From a virus: a stretch of 64,000 nucleotides of DNA. The stretch is from the UHGV virus genome UHGV-0072281; one strand, 5' to 3'. The notes beneath the pieces were generated by a model, which saw only the letters and a list, made by a program, of their open reading frames with translations, did not search any database and was not told where the DNA came from. Position 1 is the first letter of the stretch. Every line of letters begins with the position of its first letter. The translations under genes were made by a program, and so were the position numbers. Positions 6,307 to 49,193 of the stretch are shown here, piece by piece.

Positions 6307-8016
6307 ATGTACGAATTCCACATGACCTTTACCAGCATGGGGGTAAGGGTTGAAGTCCCGTGCCGACAGATAGAGTCGGCGATACTTAAGTGGGCAGAAG
6401 AACATATGCACGCTCCTAAGATGGGCAAGCAATACGGTCGTATATTCACTGAACGTGGCGATCCGTATTACGCGCATATACCTTCTCTCCGCTCGTTTAT
6501 CTTCCACAGGAACTTTTCTGAGCGTTTACGCATTATTATTAATCGTACGGCCACCGAATTTGGCATTGAGTATAAGCTTTACGAGCATTACTTAACGCAG
6601 GGAACACCTTATCGGTGTAAGTTTGAAAACTACGGCTTTAAGATGGTGGAGGACGATGAGAATTCACGTTTCTTTTACCAGAATGCTGTGGTTGAAACGG
6701 CTTGCGAACCAAATCGTTTTCAAACCATCTTTGAAATTGGTACAGGGATGGGTAAGTCGAAAACGAACATGAAAGTAATGGTACGTAAGGGTGTCAGGAC
6801 GCTACTGATTCACCGTCCGACGTACATCTCAAAATGGTTGTTTGATTTAACTGAAGACCCAACGGGTTTACGTGAGTCGAAAGATGATGTTTTGGTTATC
6901 CAAGGCGTTCAGGCTATCTACGAAGCGTTAGAGATGGGGGAATCAGGCGAATTAGACAAACGTGGGATTAAGGTTATCATTATCTCGACGGTAACGTTGC
7001 AACGATTCCTTAAAGAGTACATTAACACTGCCGCAACTAACCCAGTGAACATTGATGATTTCTACAACACCTTAGGCGTTGGGTTCTTGTCAATGGATGA
7101 AGTGCATGAGCATTTTCATCTGGTGTACATGGCAGGAATAATGCTCAACCCACCACCGTCTGTTGAGATGTCTGCGACGTTACAGCCAGGTGAATCAAAA
7201 GCGTTTTTAGCCGAACGGTATCGAGAGCGTTTTCCACAAGAGTCACGTATATTCATTCCGATTATTCCTGCTGTACACGTTAAAGCGTTGTACTACAGCA
7301 TTGAGAATAAACGGTTTGCGTGGTGGGCGAATAAGATGACGCCGTATAACCACAAGCTATTCGAAGGTAAGTTAATAAGTGAGAACATGCACTTATCTTA
7401 CGCGGATATGGTGTGGGACGTCATCGAGCGAACGTATCTGGCGAGTTACCAGCCTGGTCAGAAAGTGCTGGTGTTGTTTGCAACCGTTGCGATGTGTGAG
7501 TTCTTTACAGAGTACGTGCGAGAGAAACTGGCACAGTCTGATAAGTTCCACGCGCTGATGGTTGCGAAATACAACGCGGGGGATTCGTATGACGACTTTA
7601 TTCAAGCGGATTTCTCGATTTCAACACCAGGGAAAGCAGGCACTGCGGTTGACAAACCGGGGTTGGTCCACATGTACATCACAACGCCTGTGGAAGACCA
7701 GCAGTTAAACCGTCAGATGGCCGGTCGCCCGCGTAAGATACTTCACAACGATTGGGGTGAACTCGATCCCGTTGTGTGGTTATTCCATTCACTCTCGATA
7801 GGGAAACACTGCAATTACTTGAATGCGCGTCAAAAGTCGCTTAGTGATTCTGTGTTGTCGTTTAAGATAGCTTCTTCACCGTATGTTGTAAGGAAAACCA
7901 ATGTTACTACCGCCGCAGCCGACCGAGCCAACAGCACCGTATGCCGGGCTGAACTTAGCAAGTTTTCTCGAAAAGGTTTTAAAGGCATACCCAGACGTCG
8001 AAAACGTCGTCGATAA
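6307..8016 (+). CDS. SF2 DExH-box helicase-like protein
   Basis: 569 aa; motif I-like GTGMGKSKT, motif II MDEVHEHFH (DExH), motif III MSATLQP in correct order and spacing; C-terminus ends IPRRRKRRR. Confidence 0.55.
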   Translation: MYEFHMTFTSMGVRVEVPCRQIESAILKWAEEHMHAPKMGKQYGRIFTERGDPYYAHIPSLRSFIFHRNFSERLRIIINRTATEFGIEYKLYEHYLTQGTPYRCKFENYGFKMVEDDENSRFFYQNAVVETACEPNRFQTIFEIGTGMGKSKTNMKVMVRKGVRTLLIHRPTYISKWLFDLTEDPTGLRESKDDVLVIQGVQAIYEALEMGESGELDKRGIKVIIISTVTLQRFLKEYINTAATNPVNIDDFYNTLGVGFLSMDEVHEHFHLVYMAGIMLNPPPSVEMSATLQPGESKAFLAERYRERFPQESRIFIPIIPAVHVKALYYSIENKRFAWWANKMTPYNHKLFEGKLISENMHLSYADMVWDVIERTYLASYQPGQKVLVLFATVAMCEFFTEYVREKLAQSDKFHALMVAKYNAGDSYDDFIQADFSISTPGKAGTAVDKPGLVHMYITTPVEDQQLNRQMAGRPRKILHNDWGELDPVVWLFHSLSIGKHCNYLNARQKSLSDSVLSFKIASSPYVVRKTNVTTAAADRANSTVCRAELSKFSRKGFKGIPRRRKRRR

Positions 8017-8284
8017 ACTGTGTACCGATCCAACATTGTCCGTAGCGTTCCACTACTATATGGTAACGGAACACTTCGCCGGTATGCAGATTTTCCAACG
8101 TGGTAAATGTTATTACATTACGCGTAACTCCAGTATCCGCAATACCTCGGCCTACGAGCTTTACAGCTGGGTGCTGTGGTCTGAAAACCCTGCGGGCAAT
8201 ATCGATGAAAACCCGAAGGTGGCTTATCGACTATACTCTGAGAAATGGCACAGTTGGGTAGCCGTTCCTCACGATAGCAATTAA
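7901..8284 (+). CDS. hypothetical protein (overlaps 3' end of helicase gene by 116 nt in another frame)
   Basis: 127-aa ORF with strong AAGGAAAA SD before ATG 7901 and terminator directly downstream. Confidence 0.5.
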   Translation: MLLPPQPTEPTAPYAGLNLASFLEKVLKAYPDVENVVDKLCTDPTLSVAFHYYMVTEHFAGMQIFQRGKCYYITRNSSIRNTSAYELYSWVLWSENPAGNIDENPKVAYRLYSEKWHSWVAVPHDSN

Positions 8285-8296
8285 AAAGTACAGAAC

Positions 8297-8328
8297 GGGT
8301 GTATATTGTGTACACCCTTTCTTTTTTT
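8297..8328 (+). terminator. intrinsic terminator
   Basis: Hairpin gggtgta-tattgtg-tacaccc then tttcttttttt. Confidence 0.7.
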
Positions 8329-8345
8329 GTTAAAGGAATATTAAA

Positions 8346-14050: not shown

Positions 14051-14096
14051 TTACCCTACTCCCGAGAGGAGTAGGGTAGCTTTTATTTTTTCTTAG
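14051..14096. terminator. bidirectional intrinsic terminator; copy 1 of a duplicated 47-bp module
   Basis: Hairpin taccctactcc-cgaga-ggagtagggta then gcttttattttttc; stop codon of minus gene (TTA 14093-14095) inside module. Confidence 0.8.
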
Positions 14097-15874
14097 TGGG
14101 TGGTTTTGATGTATTCAAACGGATCGGTAATAGCCTCACCTTGACGACGTAAGAATGCTTCTAACACAACGTTCTTATCTGGCAGTAAGAAGAAGTCTGT
14201 TGCAATTTCCATTGCATTAACACGCCCTGCGGTAAGGTTAATCCCTACACGACGTCGTACTTCTTCAGGAACACCATGAATACTCAGTAACTCGATTAAC
14301 GTTGTTTCACGAGACTGGTTCATCATGTTCGTTGCAGAAGGATACGCCTGGGTTAAATCCGCATCTGCGGTTTGCCCACGGAATGCAGTGTAGAAATCAT
14401 CAAACTCTTTAATGATTCCTCGCAGGCCGTTTTCCGCGTTCATACACGCAGTTAACGTAACAATCCAACCGTCCGTACCGATAACCTCTTCATCGAAATC
14501 ATTACGCATTGCACTACCTACACAACCGATAACTAATCCTTGTTCATAAAGGTAATAGGTGTAAGCAATACAAATACGTTTTGGTAACGAAGGGAAGATA
14601 TCGTACATCGAATAACCCGCCAGTACGGAAATTGCTGAAGACAAGTCGTTCGTCTTTTTATCCAACAACACAATCATCAGGTTATCGAAGATGTTGTAAA
14701 CGCAGTATTCGAGCGGGAACTCTTTCTGTGCTTTTAAGTGCCATTCCAGTTTCTCCTCGTAAGGCAGCTCTGGCAAGTCTAACTTGTTTAAGCCCAGTTC
14801 AGTTTCCAGAATAGCGTTAAGTTTGTAAGAAGGACGTTGACCTTCGTGAACCCGCAGTGAACGGAACAGACACATTGCATCCACACAGTAGAACGATGCG
14901 GTACAATAAAGTACGTGCCACTGTTGTGAAGGCGCTTTGGTCAGTGATTTCGATTCCGTTTTCTTCGATGCTTCGTCTTTCTTGAAGTAAACACGACGGT
15001 ATTGTTTCGGTACATCAGGATGACAAAAGACGTCTTCCGGCGGAATCCCTGCGGCTTCTAGTGCTTCTAACATGCGTGAAATATCGAACTCGTGGTTCCA
15101 TGCGACTAATAAGTCAGGTAGACGAGGGTGAATCTCTTCAAACATGCGTTGAATACAGCAGCCGGAGTTTAAGCATTCGTAAACGAAGATTTTATATCCG
15201 GCAATAACGTCTTTGATTTCGGTCTTAGAATTGCCTTCCTTGTCTTTGCCACGAAAAGCAATTTTAGAAAGTAACTCCTTCGCACGTTTAATTAGTCGCG
15301 CTTCGAAGTTCTCACGACCGCAACGCGCAACGTAGTCTTTCGTTGCGAAGAAATGAATTTCGTCATCCAAAACAAAACTCATAATCCAAGGGTCTCGAGA
15401 TTTGTCTTCTTCTCGAGTTTCCACGTCGTATACGCAAATACGGTTAGGTGAAACGGCGTTAGGCCATTTCTTTATATATCTTTCTTTAATCCAGCTGGTG
15501 ATGGGTAAGTCAGCCCAGTAAACGTACGGAGAGGTACAGACTTGACGTAATGAACGTTTTTTGTCAGGAAATCTTGCTCCTAGACCCATCTGGATAGTTT
15601 GTGACATCATCACATCCGTGGTCATGTATTCCTGACACTTACTGCGTTCTTCGTATTCTTTCTTTTCTTGATGGTTACGGTGTTGTGGTAAAGTAATGTA
15701 GATAGGCCGTTTCAGATTTTCACGCATGACGATACGCGGGATGAATCTGCCATCTTTAGTATGGACGACCTCCTTTATGAGCACGAAGTCGTTTTCTTTC
15801 TGCTGATCGGTTGCGTACGAAACAAATTTGCACTCTTTGGCAATAACGTCTTCCGGTGCGTAATAGTTATTCAT
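14093..15874 (-). CDS. family-B DNA polymerase-type 3'-5' exonuclease domain protein (possible N-terminal piece of a split DNA polymerase)
   Basis: 593 aa from ATG at 15874; Exo I-like ICVYDVETRE, Exo II-like WNHEFDISRML, Exo III-like YCVDAMCL in order; no YGDTDS-type polymerase motif seen. Confidence 0.5.
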   Translation of the reverse strand: MNNYYAPEDVIAKECKFVSYATDQQKENDFVLIKEVVHTKDGRFIPRIVMRENLKRPIYITLPQHRNHQEKKEYEERSKCQEYMTTDVMMSQTIQMGLGARFPDKKRSLRQVCTSPYVYWADLPITSWIKERYIKKWPNAVSPNRICVYDVETREEDKSRDPWIMSFVLDDEIHFFATKDYVARCGRENFEARLIKRAKELLSKIAFRGKDKEGNSKTEIKDVIAGYKIFVYECLNSGCCIQRMFEEIHPRLPDLLVAWNHEFDISRMLEALEAAGIPPEDVFCHPDVPKQYRRVYFKKDEASKKTESKSLTKAPSQQWHVLYCTASFYCVDAMCLFRSLRVHEGQRPSYKLNAILETELGLNKLDLPELPYEEKLEWHLKAQKEFPLEYCVYNIFDNLMIVLLDKKTNDLSSAISVLAGYSMYDIFPSLPKRICIAYTYYLYEQGLVIGCVGSAMRNDFDEEVIGTDGWIVTLTACMNAENGLRGIIKEFDDFYTAFRGQTADADLTQAYPSATNMMNQSRETTLIELLSIHGVPEEVRRRVGINLTAGRVNAMEIATDFFLLPDKNVVLEAFLRRQGEAITDPFEYIKTTH

Positions 15875-15945
15875 GTTTTCACTCTCAAATCTAGCGGCTG
15901 CTATACTGATTTGTGGGTAATGTAATTTCTCAAAAGGAAACACAA

Positions 15946-17280
15946 ATGGGATACTGGCAAAATCACATTGCATCAGTTGCGGATGCAAAGGTTGTAGCCG
16001 CAGAATCGATTAAATTCCAAGATAAAAAGAAACTCGCAGAACTGGCAGACATTATTGCTAAATTTCGTGCAGCCGGAGACTTTAGTCCGGCCGGTTACGA
16101 GAGTTCTGGTGTTTCTGATTGGGTATTTAAAACCAATGGTATTAGCATTAACTTTAAGAACGGTAGCGAACTCGGTTTATTCGACGTTGCCTTTGCAGGT
16201 GTAGAACCACCTAAACTGGACGCTAACAGTCCGGTAATTGCGTCAATGGCGCGTGCACTGTACGCAGGTAATAAAGACCTGGACATGTACAGTAAGTTCA
16301 TTAAAGAAAACGAACTGAACAGCAGCATTGACGATTCCAGTGCGAAAATCAGCGGCGACTTGAGCAAAGTCAGTTCCCCGCTTTACCTGACCCCGGTGCT
16401 GTTGGAGAAACTGGAGCTCACCGATTTGGAGGTTGCTGCGGTAATCCTTCATGAAGTCGGTCACGTTTATTATTACTTCCGTACGCTGATGCGTACCGTG
16501 GTAACGGATTTACTGGCAGACGCTGCGGCTAACCGTATCATGGAAACCGAAGACCCGGCTGTTCGTTTACGTGTGGTTAAAGACGTTGAACGAATGCTGA
16601 ACACGAAAGTGAATCAGCCAGAGACCATCTGCACTGAGTACAAGAAAGAAAACGTCTACATGCACCTGGTAACAGATTTGCTGTTAGACCGTCCGTTCAT
16701 TAGCGGTAGTCAAGGCTTTGCAAACCGTACCTGGGAACGTGCTGCTGACGACTTCGCTGCCCGCTTTGGTGCTGCCCCGTACTTAGCTTCTGCACTGTAC
16801 AAAATGGAAACCAGCCCGTTCTATCTACTGCGTAACTCGTCGTATATGAACATGGGTGTCCATTTGACGATTGAGTTGTTCCGTGTGACTGCGCTGATTG
16901 CCCAAGCTGCCATTCCGATTCTTCCGGTTATCTCTGTTACGTTTGGGATGATTCTGAACGACCCAGATAACACCATCTACGATCCGCCGCAGGAACGTTT
17001 TGAAGCGATGCGCCGTACGCTGGTAGAAGAACTGAATACCATCAAAGACAAAAACACGAAAGCGGCTAACGAGCAACGTAAACGTATTCTGGATGGTATC
17101 GCGGTAATTGATCGAATTCTACTCACGGTTAAAGACAAAGATAACCTGTATCAGTTTATCTGGAAGACGCTGACACCGAAAGGGCGTCGTGACCGTGCTG
17201 CGGTGGATTATCAGCGCGCTATCGGGAAGTATATGTCGAATGACCTCCGTATCGCATCTGCCATGTTTAACGTCGATTAA
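15946..17280 (+). CDS. HExxH zinc metallopeptidase-like protein
   Basis: 444 aa from ATG 15946 (AAGGAAA SD); motif AAVILHEVGHVYYY. Confidence 0.4.
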   Translation: MGYWQNHIASVADAKVVAAESIKFQDKKKLAELADIIAKFRAAGDFSPAGYESSGVSDWVFKTNGISINFKNGSELGLFDVAFAGVEPPKLDANSPVIASMARALYAGNKDLDMYSKFIKENELNSSIDDSSAKISGDLSKVSSPLYLTPVLLEKLELTDLEVAAVILHEVGHVYYYFRTLMRTVVTDLLADAAANRIMETEDPAVRLRVVKDVERMLNTKVNQPETICTEYKKENVYMHLVTDLLLDRPFISGSQGFANRTWERAADDFAARFGAAPYLASALYKMETSPFYLLRNSSYMNMGVHLTIELFRVTALIAQAAIPILPVISVTFGMILNDPDNTIYDPPQERFEAMRRTLVEELNTIKDKNTKAANEQRKRILDGIAVIDRILLTVKDKDNLYQFIWKTLTPKGRRDRAAVDYQRAIGKYMSNDLRIASAMFNVD

Positions 17281-17294
17281 GTAAAGGTAAAACC

Positions 17295-17738
17295 ATGACG
17301 CATAAAGTTTCTCTGAATTCGTTAGTTCTTGATTTTAAACGCGCTAACGAAGGTAAAGGTGTCCAGGCGCAGCGTGCCCTGACTGGCCTGGTTGCATTCT
17401 CGCTGGCGTATAATGCCGATATGCCAGACAACGGACCGTATGGTTCTAATGAAGTTTCACAAATCAAACTTCGTCCACTGATGAAAAACGTGGTATCCGA
17501 CGTTAACGAACTTTACTGCGTTGACTTAGGCACTGTCGAAGACCTGACCGTTGCGTTGTTCTGTAATCGTTACGACAGCGCCTGGGGTGGACGTCGTGCA
17601 ATTGAAAACTTCTCCGTACGTGAGATTTTCAACGAAGCCTTAGGTGATGATGTTTGGAACACTGTCAACTTGTGGCTGGAACGTTTTGTCGACGCAGTGA
17701 AATTCTACATGGATGAAACGCGAGGCAAATTATCATGA
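17295..17738 (+). CDS. hypothetical protein
   Basis: 147 aa; AAAGG SD; ATGA overlap with next gene. Confidence 0.75.
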   Translation: MTHKVSLNSLVLDFKRANEGKGVQAQRALTGLVAFSLAYNADMPDNGPYGSNEVSQIKLRPLMKNVVSDVNELYCVDLGTVEDLTVALFCNRYDSAWGGRRAIENFSVREIFNEALGDDVWNTVNLWLERFVDAVKFYMDETRGKLS

Positions 17739-19408
17739 GTATGGAAATGACAGCAAACATTGCACAACCGCAATGGAAACTCGACGAACTTCCAACTATT
17801 ATCGAACAGCGAATGGAAGAACGTATCGATTCTGTCAGCCAGCTCAACCTCTACATGCAGCGTAACGAAGCCGATTTGATTTACGGTTCACGTATTATCG
17901 CGCAGATTGAAGCGATTCTTCGTGAAGTTCGTAAAGCGGGTCTAAACCGCGACGTTGCCGTAGCGACGGAATCTTTGCGTCCGGGCACTATCCCGAAAGC
18001 GGTGCAGAGCATCCTGACGTCGAACTACAGCCGTACTCATCAGAAAGAAACCGTCATCGCGCTAGAGTCTTACGCGAACTTCGGTAAGATCAGTCTTATC
18101 GTGATGGTAATGATGGGGATTATGAAAATCCTGAACTGGATTATCAGTAACGCTGTACCGTTTGCAGGGGCTGCTGACGTAGATGGGGACGAGTATCGTG
18201 ACAAACTCTTAGAGAAGATCGATGCGGTTCCTTTCATTGAACGTCTGAAAATCACCGCGCTGAAAGAAGCGTATATGGACGCGTCGAAGGGACTGAAAGA
18301 CGGTGAACTGAATAACCTGGAATTGGCTATTCTGATGGCCGATGAAGTCCTGACGAACATGAACGCAGAAGACCTGTTGAATAAGCTTAGCGCAGCTCTG
18401 GGACGTTCTCCGTTCGTAGGGATGTTTAAAGACTACACGAAACGTCGTCAGAATGAACAGCAGGTTATCCACGATATCCTCGATACGTTGCTGCGTACTA
18501 ATATCGGTTGTGCGGTATTCAGTCAGCAGGTTTGTGACGAAGTGTACAAAGCTTTACCGGCGGACGTTCGTAAAGCAGGTATCAACATTCCTAACGAAGC
18601 GTTCTACCGCCAGATGGGAAGAAACCTGGAGAGCTTCTCCGCAGGGTTAAAACGTTTAGATCAGTCGTTAAAAGACCTCAAGTCGTATTACTTCTCGGGT
18701 GACCGCACGCTGGGTACGGATCAAGAAAACCGCATTAGTGCAACGGGGATCGTTCAAGCACTGGCGTTGCTTAACGGCGAAATTGAAATAGCGTTAACCG
18801 ATTTTGCATCGTGTCGTGGTGCACCGCTACCAACGATAATGGTGAAATCCGATCGTGACTTAATCGGTTATTCGTCTCGAGAGTTCGGTAATGGATTCAT
18901 CATCGCTTCTGCGGGGGTTAACTCGTATTTCGGTTCTGCGGCTAACATGGAAATTATGCGCCAGGAACTGAGCTTTACCAGCGGTGATTCTCGTGAATTG
19001 TTAGCGTGTCTGATTACGTTAGCTCGCAGCGGGATTACTAAAGGGCCAGCCGATACGTCTATTGACCGCTTCAAAGTGGTGGAGAAACAGATCGAGAAAG
19101 TGGTTAGCCAGTTGAAAGACATGTCACGCCAATCTCGTTCTGGTATGAACAGCAAAGCTTGGCAGATGATGGAACAAGCGTTCCGTGACGAAGCACAACG
19201 TTCAGATCTGTACGAATTGGGCTTTGGTCGTGAATTGACGACGATGACCGTGATGGACCCAGAACGAAACGTGTGGGATTCTGTTGCGTTTACGACGGAA
19301 CTGATTAAGTCCTGGACAACTGCCGCCGGTGCTCTGGCGACGATTCTGAAACGGGCTAAGAACAACCCGCTGGTAAAAGGTGGGAAGTTTAATAAACTCG
19401 TCGATTAA
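17735..19408 (+). CDS. hypothetical protein
   Basis: 557 aa ORF, translationally coupled to upstream gene. Confidence 0.8.
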   Translation: MSMEMTANIAQPQWKLDELPTIIEQRMEERIDSVSQLNLYMQRNEADLIYGSRIIAQIEAILREVRKAGLNRDVAVATESLRPGTIPKAVQSILTSNYSRTHQKETVIALESYANFGKISLIVMVMMGIMKILNWIISNAVPFAGAADVDGDEYRDKLLEKIDAVPFIERLKITALKEAYMDASKGLKDGELNNLELAILMADEVLTNMNAEDLLNKLSAALGRSPFVGMFKDYTKRRQNEQQVIHDILDTLLRTNIGCAVFSQQVCDEVYKALPADVRKAGINIPNEAFYRQMGRNLESFSAGLKRLDQSLKDLKSYYFSGDRTLGTDQENRISATGIVQALALLNGEIEIALTDFASCRGAPLPTIMVKSDRDLIGYSSREFGNGFIIASAGVNSYFGSAANMEIMRQELSFTSGDSRELLACLITLARSGITKGPADTSIDRFKVVEKQIEKVVSQLKDMSRQSRSGMNSKAWQMMEQAFRDEAQRSDLYELGFGRELTTMTVMDPERNVWDSVAFTTELIKSWTTAAGALATILKRAKNNPLVKGGKFNKLVD

Positions 19409-19415
19409 AAAAGAA

Positions 19416-19462
19416 GTACCCTACTCCTTATCGGGAGTAGGGTAGCTTTTATTTTTTCTTAG
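19416..19462. terminator. bidirectional intrinsic terminator; copy 2 of duplicated 47-bp module
   Basis: Hairpin taccctactcc-ttatcg-ggagtagggta then gcttttattttttc; stem and flank identical to 14051-14096, loop differs. Confidence 0.8.
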
Positions 19463-29118: not shown

Positions 29119-29168
29119 AAAAATAATTTCAGATATATATTACTTAAGTGAGATTACACAGTAATCTC
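29119..29168 (+). promoter_or_regulatory. conserved promoter-like element, copy 1 (core TTTCAGATATATATTACTTAAGTGAGA)
   Basis: Near-identical to 37372-37423 over ~50 nt; located between terminator and next gene. Confidence 0.5.
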
Positions 29169-30758: not shown

Positions 30759-31291
30759 CAGTTACTGTATCTTTGATTGCGGCAGCGGGACTTAATAATG
30801 AAATAGGGAAAGACAATAAACTCCCTTGGCATATTCCCGATGACTTGAAGAACTTCAAAGCACTTACGTCAGGTAAGGTTATTGTGATGGGACGTAAGAC
30901 GTGGGAGTCTTTGGGATGTAAACCTTTACCAAACCGACATCATTTTGTGCTAACAAGAAAGCCTGATGATTTGCCCACAATGAAAGGGGTAATTTATTCT
31001 AAAGGTAAAATGGAAGCGTTTATTGAATTTCTCAAAATAACGATCAAGGAAAAAGATTTTCCCAAGGAAATTTTTATCATCGGGGGCGCAGAAATTTACC
31101 GCCAGGCGTTGCCATATGCGGATAAGATCTATCTGTCGCGCGTAGAAGCTAAAGTTGACGGTGCGGATGCGTTCTTTCCTGAAATCGATCGCGATGAGTT
31201 TAAATTGGTTTATAACTTAACGCACTGCTCGAAACCAGAAAGTGGTATTCCGCGTTGGCATTATCAGATTTGGAAAAGAGATGGGCACTGA
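30755..31291 (+). CDS. dihydrofolate reductase
   Basis: 178 aa; IAAAGLNNEIGKDNKLPWHIPDDLKNFKALTSGKVIVMGRKTWESLG and IIGGAEIYRQALPYADKIYLSRVEAKVDGDAFFPEID closely parallel E. coli FolA. Confidence 0.93.
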   Translation: MTVTVSLIAAAGLNNEIGKDNKLPWHIPDDLKNFKALTSGKVIVMGRKTWESLGCKPLPNRHHFVLTRKPDDLPTMKGVIYSKGKMEAFIEFLKITIKEKDFPKEIFIIGGAEIYRQALPYADKIYLSRVEAKVDGADAFFPEIDRDEFKLVYNLTHCSKPESGIPRWHYQIWKRDGH

Positions 31292-37219: not shown

Positions 37220-37225
37220 AATTAT

Positions 37226-37264
37226 CCCGTTACCCACAAAGGTAACGGGATGTCCTTTTATTTA
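37226..37264 (+). terminator. intrinsic terminator
   Basis: Hairpin cccgttacc-cacaaa-ggtaacggg then tccttttattt. Confidence 0.7.
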
Positions 37265-37371
37265 CTCGTAAACGCGTCTTAGACGCTGTTTTACACCTTA
37301 AGACGATTAATGGTGTTTAAAAAATAAAAGGTCGTCAGAATGCGATACAGCGCGTTTTAGAGGGTGTTTTA

Positions 37372-37423
37372 ATTAAAATATTTTCAGATATATATTACTT
37401 AGGTGAGAGAATTACGTAATACT
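37372..37423 (+). promoter_or_regulatory. conserved promoter-like element, copy 2 (core TTTCAGATATATATTACTTAGGTGAGA)
   Basis: Matches 29119-29168 at nearly every position; 48 nt upstream of ATG 37456. Confidence 0.5.
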
Positions 37424-37455
37424 CATTTATCGTATACCTAATTAGGAGCTATATC

Positions 37456-37599
37456 ATGATTTCTGTAAAACACAAAAAAGCTATCTTCGCTGTTGTTATC
37501 GCTGTTGTTCTGGGTTGCCTGTACCTGGATATCGACAAAGGCTACGACACTTGCATCGACAACGGTAATTCCGTTGCGCAGTGCACTGGTCGTGGTTAA
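37456..37599 (+). CDS. small single-pass membrane peptide (47 aa)
   Basis: MISVKHKKAIFAVVIAVVLGCLYLDIDKGYDTCIDNGNSVAQCTGRG; AGGAG SD; optimal codons; own promoter-like element and terminator; too short for the ORF track. Confidence 0.65.
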   Translation: MISVKHKKAIFAVVIAVVLGCLYLDIDKGYDTCIDNGNSVAQCTGRG

Positions 37600-37603
37600 T
37601 GTA

Positions 37604-37636
37604 TAAGGCACCTTCGGGTGCCCTTAATTTTTTTAT
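37604..37636 (+). terminator. intrinsic terminator
   Basis: Hairpin ggcacc-ttcg-ggtgcc then cttaattttttt. Confidence 0.75.
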
Positions 37637-37653
37637 TAATTGGAGCATAAACG

Positions 37654-38469: not shown

Positions 38470-38475
38470 AAGCAA

Positions 38476-38518
38476 CCCCTAATCCCGAAAAGGATTAGGG
38501 GTACACTTTATTTATTTT
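38476..38518 (+). terminator. intrinsic terminator
   Basis: Hairpin cccctaatcc-cgaaaa-ggattagggg then T-rich run. Confidence 0.8.
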
Positions 38519-38541
38519 CGCTCTTAAAAGGAAATTGTGTC

Positions 38542-38697
38542 ATGAGAAATGTTAATGCAATGCTTAACCAGGCATTTGTTAACCAACAGCGTTTTCAGGA
38601 ACGCTTAGCACAACTTAAAACACAACACAGACCACCACAACAAAGAGTGGTTAAGAGCAAGTTCGGCGAAATGGTTTTCGAAAGAAAATCTTTCTAA
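38542..38697 (+). CDS. small basic protein, paralogue 1 of 3 (51 aa)
   Basis: MRNVNAMLNQAFVNQQRFQERLAQLKTQHRPPQQRVVKSKFGEMVFERKSF; AAAAGGAAA SD; not in ORF track (<60 aa). Confidence 0.55.
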   Translation: MRNVNAMLNQAFVNQQRFQERLAQLKTQHRPPQQRVVKSKFGEMVFERKSF

Positions 38698-38704
38698 TAA
38701 CCGT

Positions 38705-38731
38705 TAGGGGTGTGACAGCACCCCTTTTTAC
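38705..38731 (+). terminator. intrinsic terminator
   Basis: Hairpin aggggtg-tgacag-cacccct then ttttt. Confidence 0.7.
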
Positions 38732-38847
38732 GCTTTAACTTTTCCAAAGAGAAGTTAAAGCAGTAAGGACTGTTGGCGCAGTCCTTACTTGTCATCGCTA
38801 TTACAGAAACGTGATAGCACAATTCTAATTTTTAGAGGCGATCAGAA

Positions 38848-39015
38848 ATGTTCGACAGTATTACACAAATTTTTAACACTACCGTAAACAATCACGCTCA
38901 GCAAGCGAAGTTTAATGAACGATTAAGGGAAGTTCAACAATTAGGATTAAATAAAAGATTAAAATCTTCCAATAATCCTCGAGTACAGATCTTCACCGAA
39001 AGGAGAAGTAACTGA
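38848..39015 (+). CDS. small basic protein, paralogue 2 of 3 (55 aa)
   Basis: MFDSITQIFNTTVNNHAQQAKFNERLREVQQLGLNKRLKSSNNPRVQIFTERRSN; shares QLG-NKRLK-S-N---QI-TE-RS with paralogue 3. Confidence 0.6.
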   Translation: MFDSITQIFNTTVNNHAQQAKFNERLREVQQLGLNKRLKSSNNPRVQIFTERRSN

Positions 39016-39023
39016 TAAAAACA

Positions 39024-39053
39024 AGGTGAGCTGTTGGAGCAGCTCACCTTTTA
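39024..39053 (+). terminator. intrinsic terminator
   Basis: Hairpin aggtgagctg-ttggag-cagctcacct then ttt. Confidence 0.65.
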
Positions 39054-39111
39054 CAACGCCATTACGTTTCCGTAATGGATTTCTTTAATCACCCTACAAA
39101 GAGGGCTTACC

Positions 39112-39285
39112 ATGAACAATGGTTACTACTTTACTGACAAAATGCTTGCAGAACAATATGCAGCAAAAACCAATTTACAGCAACGTATCTACGAGTATAG
39201 TCAACTCGGTGCGAATAAACGATTAAAACCATCAACCAACCGTTTCACACAGATAATCACTGAAAAAAGGAGTGAACGCTACTAA
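39112..39285 (+). CDS. small basic protein, paralogue 3 of 3 (57 aa)
   Basis: MNNGYYFTDKMLAEQYAAKTNLQQRIYEYSQLGANKRLKPSTNRFTQIITEKRSERY. Confidence 0.6.
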   Translation: MNNGYYFTDKMLAEQYAAKTNLQQRIYEYSQLGANKRLKPSTNRFTQIITEKRSERY

Positions 39286-39420
39286 CTAATAAAAGGGGGT
39301 GTGCTACCACCCCCTACTTAGTTCAGCAGTTGTCTTTCGTTCATAAATATTAGATGTCTTGTTTTTTTTTGCTTTTCGGGACGCATAAGGGGTCGTAGGG
39401 GGAGCCGAAGCTCCCCAGAC

Positions 39421-43884: not shown

Positions 43885-43911
43885 TTTCGGATAGATATTA
43901 TTAAAGAGAGA
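43885..43911 (+). promoter_or_regulatory. conserved promoter-like element, copy 3 (TTTCGGATAGATATTATTAAAGAGAGA)
   Basis: 22/27 identity to copies 1 and 2; again directly downstream of a terminator. Confidence 0.4.
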
Positions 43912-48740: not shown

Positions 48741-48750
48741 TCATCACACA

Positions 48751-48782
48751 AGGAGAGCCGAAGCTCTCCTCCTTTATTTTTA
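48751..48782 (+). terminator. intrinsic terminator
   Basis: Hairpin aggagagc-cgaa-gctctcct then cctttatttttatt. Confidence 0.75.
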
Positions 48783-48828
48783 TTCCCCAATTTATTATAG
48801 CCGCCCACTATAGTGAGGGAATGAGGAA

Positions 48829-49134
48829 ATGATTAAATATGTTGTTATTAATGTAAACTACGAACGTAGTCCACGTTTTCGCTTCGAATTACCTGAAACC
48901 AATGCAACCATGGAGTTTAATCGCTACTTTTTAGAGCATTCAAACACCAAAGTCAATCGCGGTAGATACTAGCTTATCTACTATAATGCACGTAATGAGT
49001 TACTGAAAGCCGTCAAGAAATCAGGTCAGCAAGAATTGTTAGCGAAACTGATGGCGTTTGATAACGATCCTTTAGCAATAGGAATTATGTTAGACCTTGT
49101 TATCAATAAAGACGAAATAGCGTGGTCCGAATAA
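48829..49134 (+). pseudogene. 101-codon reading frame interrupted by one in-frame TAG (48970-48972): pseudogene or readthrough/suppression candidate
   Basis: ATG 48829 with GAGGGA/AGGAAA SD; 47 codons, TAG, then 53 further sense codons in the same frame ending TAA 49132-49134 just before a terminator. Confidence 0.4.
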
Positions 49135-49190
49135 AAAAGCTACTCCGACCCCAGAAGGGTCGGAGTAGGCTCGAATTATTTTTTTTTTGC
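49134..49190. terminator. bidirectional intrinsic terminator
   Basis: 12-bp stem ctactccgaccc-cagaa-gggtcggagtag flanked by A-run upstream and T10 downstream. Confidence 0.85.
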
Positions 49191-49193
49191 TAT

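Follow-up and report, generated by a model that had tools for sequence, protein, structure and literature searches.

The virus genome UHGV-0072281, analysed here as one stretch of 64,000 nucleotides (nt; the window), contains a gene for a protein of 444 amino acids (aa) with an HExxH signature (Table 1). Which kind of protein bears this motif, and at what stage of an infection would it act? The window belongs to an unpublished phage related to the jumbo phages SPN3US and phiEaH2. Comparison with homologues makes it well supported that the gene product is an M48-like zinc metallopeptidase with intact active-site residues, predicted to be catalytically competent. By transfer from orthologue data it is likewise well supported that the protein is packaged in the head and cleaved after residue E20. 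Action of the packaged enzyme at a membrane after ejection is tentatively favoured. Zincin nature and head location of this family are already in the literature, to which the window gene adds another member. Iyer et al. (2021) described AMR59696.1 of SEGD1, an orthologue, as a "conserved, uncharacterized zincin-like metallopeptidase" of group 1 jumbo phages (PMC7824862); its identity as SEGD1_047 (gp047), the orthologue of SPN3US gp45 in a Seoulvirus, was confirmed.

The open reading frame (ORF) runs from an ATG at 15946 to a stop codon ending at 17280, and genes called independently on a contig of 99% identity include the identical 444-aa product. A GTG at 15913 was considered as another start and dropped, since homologues and the independent call begin at MG(Y/H)W. 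The protein contains AAVILHEVGHVYYYF, in which HEVGH occupies aa 169-173, confirming the HExxH signature of the preliminary description. HExxH is a short motif, and one further instance was found among the window proteins (HEHFH at residue 267, context LSMDEVHEHFHLVYMAG, in a 569-aa ORF at 6307-8016 on the plus strand), which may be a chance occurrence. A coincidental HExxH in a non-peptidase might therefore be suspected here as well. However, the composition of the protein (5 His, 25 Glu) predicts only 0.003 HExxH by chance, it does not vary among homologues, a second M48 motif stands at the expected place, and matches by profile and predicted fold are to M48 enzymes. On these grounds a chance motif is effectively refuted, and its probability is negligible.

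A profile search over 1.84 billion representative proteins resulted in 2,205 family members at E<=1e-3, with 830 at E<=1e-30 (counts are cluster representatives). Nearly all of them are 415-450 aa long and align over the full length. In an alignment of 136 diverse homologues with a mean column identity of 26%, residues E20, G137, H169, E170, G172, H173, E264, D268 and R351 are invariant (136/136), and near-invariant positions include Q25, P89, N94, N188, R273, G275, Y345 and D346. In a wider set of 171 sequences the HExxH residues are present in 170, the lone exception being a gapped fragment. The block from Y345 to R351 may be a transition-state or structural element. With E20 and the catalytic residues invariant and the second motif in place, the protein is predicted to be an active-site-intact, M48-like peptidase that is trimmed at E20.

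This conservation also bears on the idea that the protein has passed the need of catalysis and is an M48-derived, head-internal or vertex-associated building block. Automatic names in certain GenBank records are 'beta-barrel assembly-enhancing protease' and 'putative M48 family lipoprotein protease', and others carry the label 'virion structural protein'. The latter label, the mid abundance in heads (PMC5694885), and the fact that most of the 444 residues, in the N-terminal and the C-terminal helical domains, lie outside the catalytic core are in favour of a structural or assembly role. However, H169, E170, H173, E264 and D268 are kept throughout the 136 sequences and in the wider set. Pseudo-enzymes normally lose such catalytic residues. 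Moreover, the family is not among the ordered capsid and tail proteins or any other chains of the published phiKZ and Goslar virion structures, no PDB match came from a phage virion, and the structure papers are silent on it. A purely structural role thus appears quite improbable.

The relationship to M48 peptidases became significant only with the family profile. Searches of Pfam, NCBIfam and PDB sequences with the single sequence gave M48/HtpX hints, all below threshold. Against Pfam Peptidase_M48 (PF01435) the window protein scored 19.3 bits (E 1.1e-3), 1 bit below the gathering threshold of 20.3, and all 17 close homologues matched at E<=1 (best E 5.2e-4). Because of this score below the cut-off, the protein is best regarded as M48-like, a divergent sister family rather than a curated Pfam member. 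With the 136-sequence profile, human ZMPSTE24 (E 3.7e-5) and yeast Ste24p (E 3.8e-3) were retrieved from the PDB sequences. In the ZMPSTE24 alignment the HExxH falls on H335-H339 (HELGH) and the glutamate helix on the E415 region, where E264 aligns with R-R-F-E415-F-Q-A-D. An E-x-x-A-D is likewise found in BepA, LoiP, YcaL and HtpX of E. coli, and in the phage homologues the residue preceding D268 is A or S. Alignment by hhalign to these four E. coli proteins had a probability of 90.6% (E 1.3e-6) over only 35 columns. This match covers aa 139-175, with the last beta-strand, the linker and the HExxH, and leaves the glutamate helix outside, because the spacing between HExxH and Glu differs. It is 95 residues in the window protein, which is the family median, compared with 65 in BepA, somewhat more than that in HtpX, and about 80 in ZMPSTE24 (H335 to E415).

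An AlphaFold model from the 17 close homologues (pLDDT 60, below 50 in the E264 region) was set aside for one from the deep alignment (pLDDT 89.4, pTM 0.90). In the latter, helices at the N-terminus with a small beta-sheet (aa 67-148) are predicted, then the active-site helix (160-199), the glutamate helix (256-273), a helix-turn-helix (303-337) and a helical domain (348-443); pLDDT is low for aa 1-20. E264 on helix 256-273 is the predicted third zinc ligand, for which the preliminary description had proposed to look, and the predicted M48-like core is compatible with a zincin active site. Whole-chain comparison with predicted viral structures retrieved jumbo-phage 'virion structural proteins' at TM 0.5-0.77; weaker matches were the 'Zincin protease' of AR9 and proteins named 'Peptidase M48' from uncultured myoviruses. 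For the C-terminal helical domain no significant structural match beyond jumbo phages was obtained. Thus, the zincin-type metallopeptidase reading of the preliminary description holds, by the invariant motif, the predicted third ligand and the predicted M48-like catalytic core, and its 'otherwise unknown fold' is replaced by a predicted M48-like core with full-length structural relatives in other jumbo phages.

With the M48 family (Ste24/ZMPSTE24, HtpX, BepA, LoiP, Oma1) the window protein shares the HExxH on a long helix after a beta-strand and the predicted third-ligand Glu in an E-x-x-A-D helix. Its hydrophobic segment may point to membrane association, which is typical of M48 enzymes though not universal among them. 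Unlike these enzymes it has no signal peptide, N-terminal transmembrane helices or seven-transmembrane chamber. Its hydrophobic hairpin follows the glutamate helix instead of preceding it. It also has its own N-terminal domain and its C-terminal helical domain and, as judged from orthologues, would be packaged in a capsid and processed by a viral serine protease. The minigluzincins proabylysin and projannalysin are soluble archaeal zymogens of about 105 residues blocked by their own C-terminal tail, in contrast to the window protein, which is four times larger and has an N-terminal leader.

The gene order is that of SPN3US: virion RNA polymerase beta-type subunit, hypothetical gene, DNA polymerase (minus strand), gp45, gp46, gp47 and gp48 (minus strand). 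Together with the sequence similarity (72% identity) this identifies the window protein as the orthologue of SPN3US gp45. The match to PHROG 2767 spans residues 1-442 (E 9.6e-152), and tblastn gave 72-74% identity to the SPN3US, phiEaH2 and Asesino proteins over 99-100% of the query. A more distant orthologue is phiKZ gp84 (25% identity, BLASTP E 1e-18), which retains HEIGH and EQLAD and is annotated in its record as structural head protein. SPN3US gp45, SEGD1 gp047 and phiKZ gp84 agree with the window protein in length. By tblastn the gene is present in a single copy per genome in 186 phage genomes, with hosts including Erwinia, Pseudomonas, Salmonella, Serratia, Ralstonia, Klebsiella and Vibrio. 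The genes named gp84 in phage G and in JS26 are unrelated to phiKZ gp84. In Serratia phage PCH45 the orthologue (MN334766 8792-10075) has the same position, adjoining the DNA polymerase gene.

SPN3US gp45 (50.3 kDa) was found in virions and in purified tailless heads, with the entry 'Head, unknown function' (PMC5694885; PMC10052503 Table 2). The SPN3US prohead protease gp245 cuts it at ASE-20, which frees a 20-residue leader (PMC10052503 Table 2) that the SPN3US authors liken to the T4 capsid-targeting sequence (PMC5694885). The window protein reads V-A-A-E20 followed by S-I-K-F-Q at this site. In the alignment the leader ends in [S/A/G/T]-x-E, with Glu at P1 in 136/136, S, A, G or T at P3 in 129/136 and usually V, L or I at P4, and the residues that follow are [A/S]-I-x-[F/Y/H]-Q. 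The cleavage motif agrees with the published specificity of the prohead proteases of these phages. In most of the family the leader has 7-26 residues, most often 12; the clade of the window has 20. The SC/M value (spectral count per unit mass) of gp45 in SPN3US is 2.99, compared with 8.84 for the tail sheath of about 264 copies and about 1 for both the prohead protease and the virion RNA polymerase subunits (PMC5694885 Table 1). On a rough scale, these values would correspond to tens to around a hundred gp45 copies per head. The preliminary description missed both the virion head family and the 20-residue prohead-protease leader. Prohead processing, which it had placed among the candidate roles, is unlikely to be the main role, since that step belongs to gp245, a separate enzyme that is already known.

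The short leader ending at Glu and the retention of the mature protein in the head, as judged from sequence and orthologue data, are common to the window protein and to the T4 internal proteins with a capsid-targeting sequence (IPI-III and Alt, cut by gp21). In contrast to this likeness, there is no sequence relationship, in some relatives an N-terminal protein of 370-1,040 residues replaces the leader, and a targeting role of the leader is putative. These relatives belong to a group of seven much longer metagenomic proteins (804-1,452 aa). Six of them (P0054, P0082, P0094, P0154, P0159 and P0167) carry the additional N-terminal segment ahead of the peptidase module, with the junction motifs GIE|GISFQ, AME|AIDFQ, GME|AIDHQ, STE|SISFQ, TLE|SVRFQ and TTE|SISFQ. 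The seventh, P0099, has a C-terminal extension of about 540 residues instead. The six fusions look like polyproteins from which the prohead protease would release a peptidase of standard size. In P0082 the N-terminal part matches PHROG 8131 and, by BLASTP (E 6e-9), the propeptide region of the gp47-like protein of the window through ALE-111. That of P0167 gave a weak PhiKZ_gp86 Pfam match (E 0.007), and the N-termini of the other fusions had no Pfam match. Hence, the operon in the window, with a 14-nt gap and then a 4-nt overlap (ATGA) between the genes, and the fusion elsewhere tie the peptidase to a gp47/gp86-type head protein. In SPN3US, gp47 is essential and acts as a head ejection protein (PMC5694885); both of its prohead-protease sites, ATE-79 and ALE-111, are retained in the window.

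The sole strongly hydrophobic stretch of the peptidase, aa 305-338, coincides with the helix-turn-helix and reaches a Kyte-Doolittle peak of 1.9. Among close relatives this hairpin is the least conserved segment in sequence. Its hydrophobicity is kept, with Kyte-Doolittle values above 1.6 over 19 residues in 96% of the 136 members. The summed Hessa energy of the best hairpin 19-mer has a family median of +0.46 kcal/mol, compared with +7.3 kcal/mol for the rest of the protein. Conserved hydrophobicity despite variable sequence fits a lipid-facing anchor, and membrane association by the hairpin is plausible. The hairpin helices are short in the model (18 and 12 residues).

From these data the following course may be proposed. 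H169 and H173 of the HExxH and E264 of the E-x-x-A-D would bind zinc, with E170 as general base. The enzyme would be expressed late from the head-protein operon together with the gp46-like and gp47-like proteins and taken up into the prohead, where the prohead serine protease would trim it after E20. The mature enzyme of about 47.6 kDa would be kept inside the DNA-filled head and, when infection begins, exit from the capsid along with the DNA and further ejection proteins. The hydrophobic hairpin would then anchor it at a membrane, either the inner membrane or that of the early-infection (EPI) vesicle, where co-ejected phage proteins or host envelope proteins would be cleaved. We hold this whole chain with slightly less than even confidence.

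The main alternative is a maturation or clean-up peptidase that acts only inside the prohead beside the serine protease, by extra cuts of head proteins or by degradation of propeptides. In the clean-up version, propeptides of 111-254 residues (SPN3US) would be reduced to peptides small enough to exit the shell, and presence in the mature head would be a leftover. An in-capsid role was proposed by Iyer et al. for the SEGD1 orthologue (PMC7824862), and assembly brings the enzyme together with its presumed substrates. In SPN3US the propeptides can no longer be detected once heads are mature, and head proteolysis is extensive in phiKZ and 201phi2-1 (PMC10052503). However, all 14 mapped SPN3US head cleavages conform to the gp245 rule A-x-E, with 42 head proteins left uncut, and recombinant gp245 is sufficient to fragment the gp53 propeptide in vitro (PMC10052503, Fig. 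3 legend). Furthermore, SPN3US gp45 remains in mature heads at mid abundance, above the prohead protease, and an in-capsid role leaves the family-wide hydrophobic hairpin unexplained. We therefore regard it as somewhat unlikely. Post-ejection action is favoured by the exclusive agreement of the mapped cleavages with gp245 specificity, by retention of the enzyme in mature heads, by the conserved hydrophobic hairpin as in membrane-bound M48 enzymes, by the operon and fusion ties to the ejection protein, and by the absence from the ordered virion proteins of published structures.

Several points weigh against the post-ejection reading. The hairpin of the window protein itself is marginal, with +4.66 kcal/mol (Hessa) for its best 19-mer and two prolines. 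A Foldseek search of the PDB found no structure that matches globally (best E 0.087, TM about 0.2), and zinc-site geometry and hairpin exposure are predictions at the level of the model only. Ejection, for gp45 and gp84 as for the window protein, membrane association and substrates are what we infer from the features above. A literature search, which included gp84, PHIKZ084 and M48 in jumbo phages, retrieved no functional study of any family member. In addition, the enzyme may have a role in the capsid, for example degradation of released propeptides, of which mature heads would show no sign.

A more specific form of post-ejection action is that of a membrane-inserting protease which travels down the tail with the genome, inserts its hairpin into the inner or EPI-vesicle membrane, and cuts phage or host proteins there. 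In this precise form the proposal is unlikely. If true, it may activate or release the co-ejected gp47/gp86-type protein or the virion RNA polymerase, remodel the vesicle, or destroy defence or quality-control proteins located in the envelope. It would also be the first enzyme with a place in the EPI-vesicle stage of infection by chimalliviruses, and the mechanisms of EPI-vesicle formation and transport are explicitly listed as open questions (PMC12908238). A capsid-carried zincin-type motif is also found in phage N4, which ejects its own giant RNA polymerase with an HExxH in the zincin-like C1 subdomain (PMC13434306, PMC8472413). The N4 motif belongs, in contrast, to a domain of the polymerase itself, and no homology to the peptidase family was detected; hence this is an analogy only.

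The preliminary description had also listed a host-directed role (anti-defence or takeover of the host), which would make the protein a cytoplasmic, non-virion effector in this phage. Host-aimed zincin-like peptidases do occur sporadically in other jumbo phages (PMC7824862). However, orthologues are proteomically proven head proteins (PMC5694885, PMC10052503), and the leader and cleavage motif are kept in the window protein (AAE-20, then SIKFQ). The gene lies within a head-protein operon with no candidate early-promoter motif found upstream, and it is single-copy and core rather than patchy. Such an effector is therefore very improbable.

The family is one of few recognisable enzymes among roughly 50 head proteins of phiKZ-/SPN3US-type phages and is universally conserved in these phages with an intact active site (186 deposited genomes, 2,205 clusters). 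These phages are candidates for phage therapy and serve as models of both the phage nucleus and the vesicle of early infection. To learn whether the enzyme serves head maturation or acts on membranes during entry would fill a concrete gap.

The divergent arrangement and the 71-bp spacer of the preliminary description are confirmed by both gene starts. The upstream neighbour, described there as an exonuclease gene, is the gene of a DNA polymerase subunit, as judged from its match to PHROG 3011 and its orthology to SPN3US gp44, which together with gp18 represents the DNA polymerase subunits of that phage (PMC5694885). A mechanical ORF list starts this gene at a TTG at 15988 (14093-15988), overlapping the peptidase start; homologous 593-aa calls and the SPN3US annotation support the ATG at 15874 instead. 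The spacer is 75-76% identical to those of SPN3US and phiEaH2. Its conserved blocks, CTCTCAAAT and GCTGCTATAyTGATTTGyGGGTA..GTAATTT, are common to four phages, and CTCTCAA, CTATA and GTAAT are unchanged even in Wellington. These blocks are candidate promoter elements for a phage RNA polymerase. For the conserved block CTGCTATACTGATTTG no second copy was found within the window.

A sigma-70 scan gave 10 sites compared with 7.5 +/- 2.5 expected, and the one match within the spacer is at chance level. phiKZ transcribes independently of host RNA polymerase (PMC7598289), and by analogy sigma-70 promoters are probably irrelevant here. The spacer contains neither TATG, the late-promoter element of phiKZ, nor a copy of the AT-rich motif AGATAGATATTAT, a candidate early promoter. 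A location of both promoters in the spacer is plausible, since strong terminators close both units and blocks of the spacer are conserved; the promoters may instead sit inside the neighbouring coding sequence. The terminator hairpins share an identical 11-nt stem arm, and both are located at convergent gene junctions. No further copy of the arm occurs in the 64 kb (4 arm matches compared with 0.45 expected by chance). One hairpin of the pair closes the DNA polymerase unit, the other the gp45-gp46-gp47 unit.

Elsewhere in the window AGATAGATATTAT or AGATATATATTAC is found on the plus strand at 1882-1894, 29131-29143, 37386-37398 and 43889-43901. These copies, with 0-2 mismatches, are intergenic, precede plus-strand genes and are mostly just past a terminator. 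The motif resembles the AT-rich early (virion RNA polymerase) promoter consensus of about 10 nt of phiKZ-type phages (PMC7598289). Copies with 1-2 mismatches inside ORFs were found at 31122 (minus strand) and 41194 (plus strand), and at 3 mismatches the 19 copies are not above the 14.9 expected by chance.

Table 1. Positions of the peptidase gene, its predicted protein elements and the surrounding features in the window
Feature	Position	Strand	Basis or remark
Peptidase coding sequence, 444 aa, M48-like zinc metallopeptidase, PHROG 2767	15946..17280	+	ORF reading, PHROG match, independent gene call
AGGA, Shine-Dalgarno-like, 7 nt before the peptidase ATG	15935..15938	+	Direct sequence reading
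N-terminal leader/propeptide, aa 1-20, ending A18-A19-E20, predicted prohead-protease site	15946..16005	+	Homologous to ASE-20 of SPN3US gp45
Three-stranded beta-sheet segment, aa 126-148, with invariant G137, directly before the active-site helix	16321..16389	+	Predicted secondary structure
HEVGH (H169, E170, H173), predicted two zinc ligands and catalytic base, on helix aa 160-199	16450..16464	+	Invariant; aligned to HELGH of ZMPSTE24
E264-R-A-A267-D268, M48-type E-x-x-A-D glutamate helix, predicted third zinc ligand	16735..16749	+	E264 and D268 invariant; helix 256-273
Hydrophobic helix-turn-helix hairpin, aa 303-337, candidate membrane anchor	16852..16956	+	Model and hydropathy
Y345-D346-P-P-Q-E-R351 block, R351 invariant, Y345 and D346 nearly so	16978..16998	+	Alignment
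C-terminal all-helical domain, aa 348-443	16987..17277	+	Predicted model
Divergent spacer, 71 bp	15875..15945	.	Between minus-strand ATG 15874 and plus-strand ATG 15946
DNA polymerase subunit, divergent neighbour, 593 aa, SPN3US gp44 orthologue	14093..15874	-	PHROG 3011 E 2.7e-252; PMC5694885
gp46-like gene, 147 aa, PHROG 8529, 14 nt past the peptidase stop	17295..17738	+	PHROG match, synteny
gp47-like head ejection protein gene, 557 aa, PHROG 8131	17735..19408	+	PHROG match; PMC5694885
Bidirectional intrinsic-terminator hairpin, end of peptidase operon	19417..19444	.	Stem TACCCTACTCC...GGAGTAGGGTA
Bidirectional terminator hairpin, end of divergent DNA polymerase unit	14052..14078	.	Same stem TACCCTACTCC...GGAGTAGGGTA

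All neighbours looked for were present: the DNA polymerase subunit divergent upstream, the gp46-like and gp47-like genes downstream, and a convergent gp48-like gene. The closest group to the window consists of SPN3US, phiEaH2 and Asesino (about 73% nucleotide identity, protein identity up to 74%), and none of 50,697 deposited phage genomes is nearer. A protein 99% identical to the window peptidase (P0001, locus L008; window 15946-17277) represents a cluster of 384 sequences, whose names refer to assemblies of Salmonella enterica serovar Enteritidis and to sequencing run SRR7274982. A jumbo phage near that of the window appears to recur in sequencing data of Salmonella isolates, as carrier state or contamination. 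No tRNA genes were found across the whole window. Four gaps of 330-950 nt (8017-8345, 37220-37653, 38470-39420 and 48741-49193) have no long ORF and contain only small ORFs of 31-57 aa, and several of these gaps open with a terminator hairpin.

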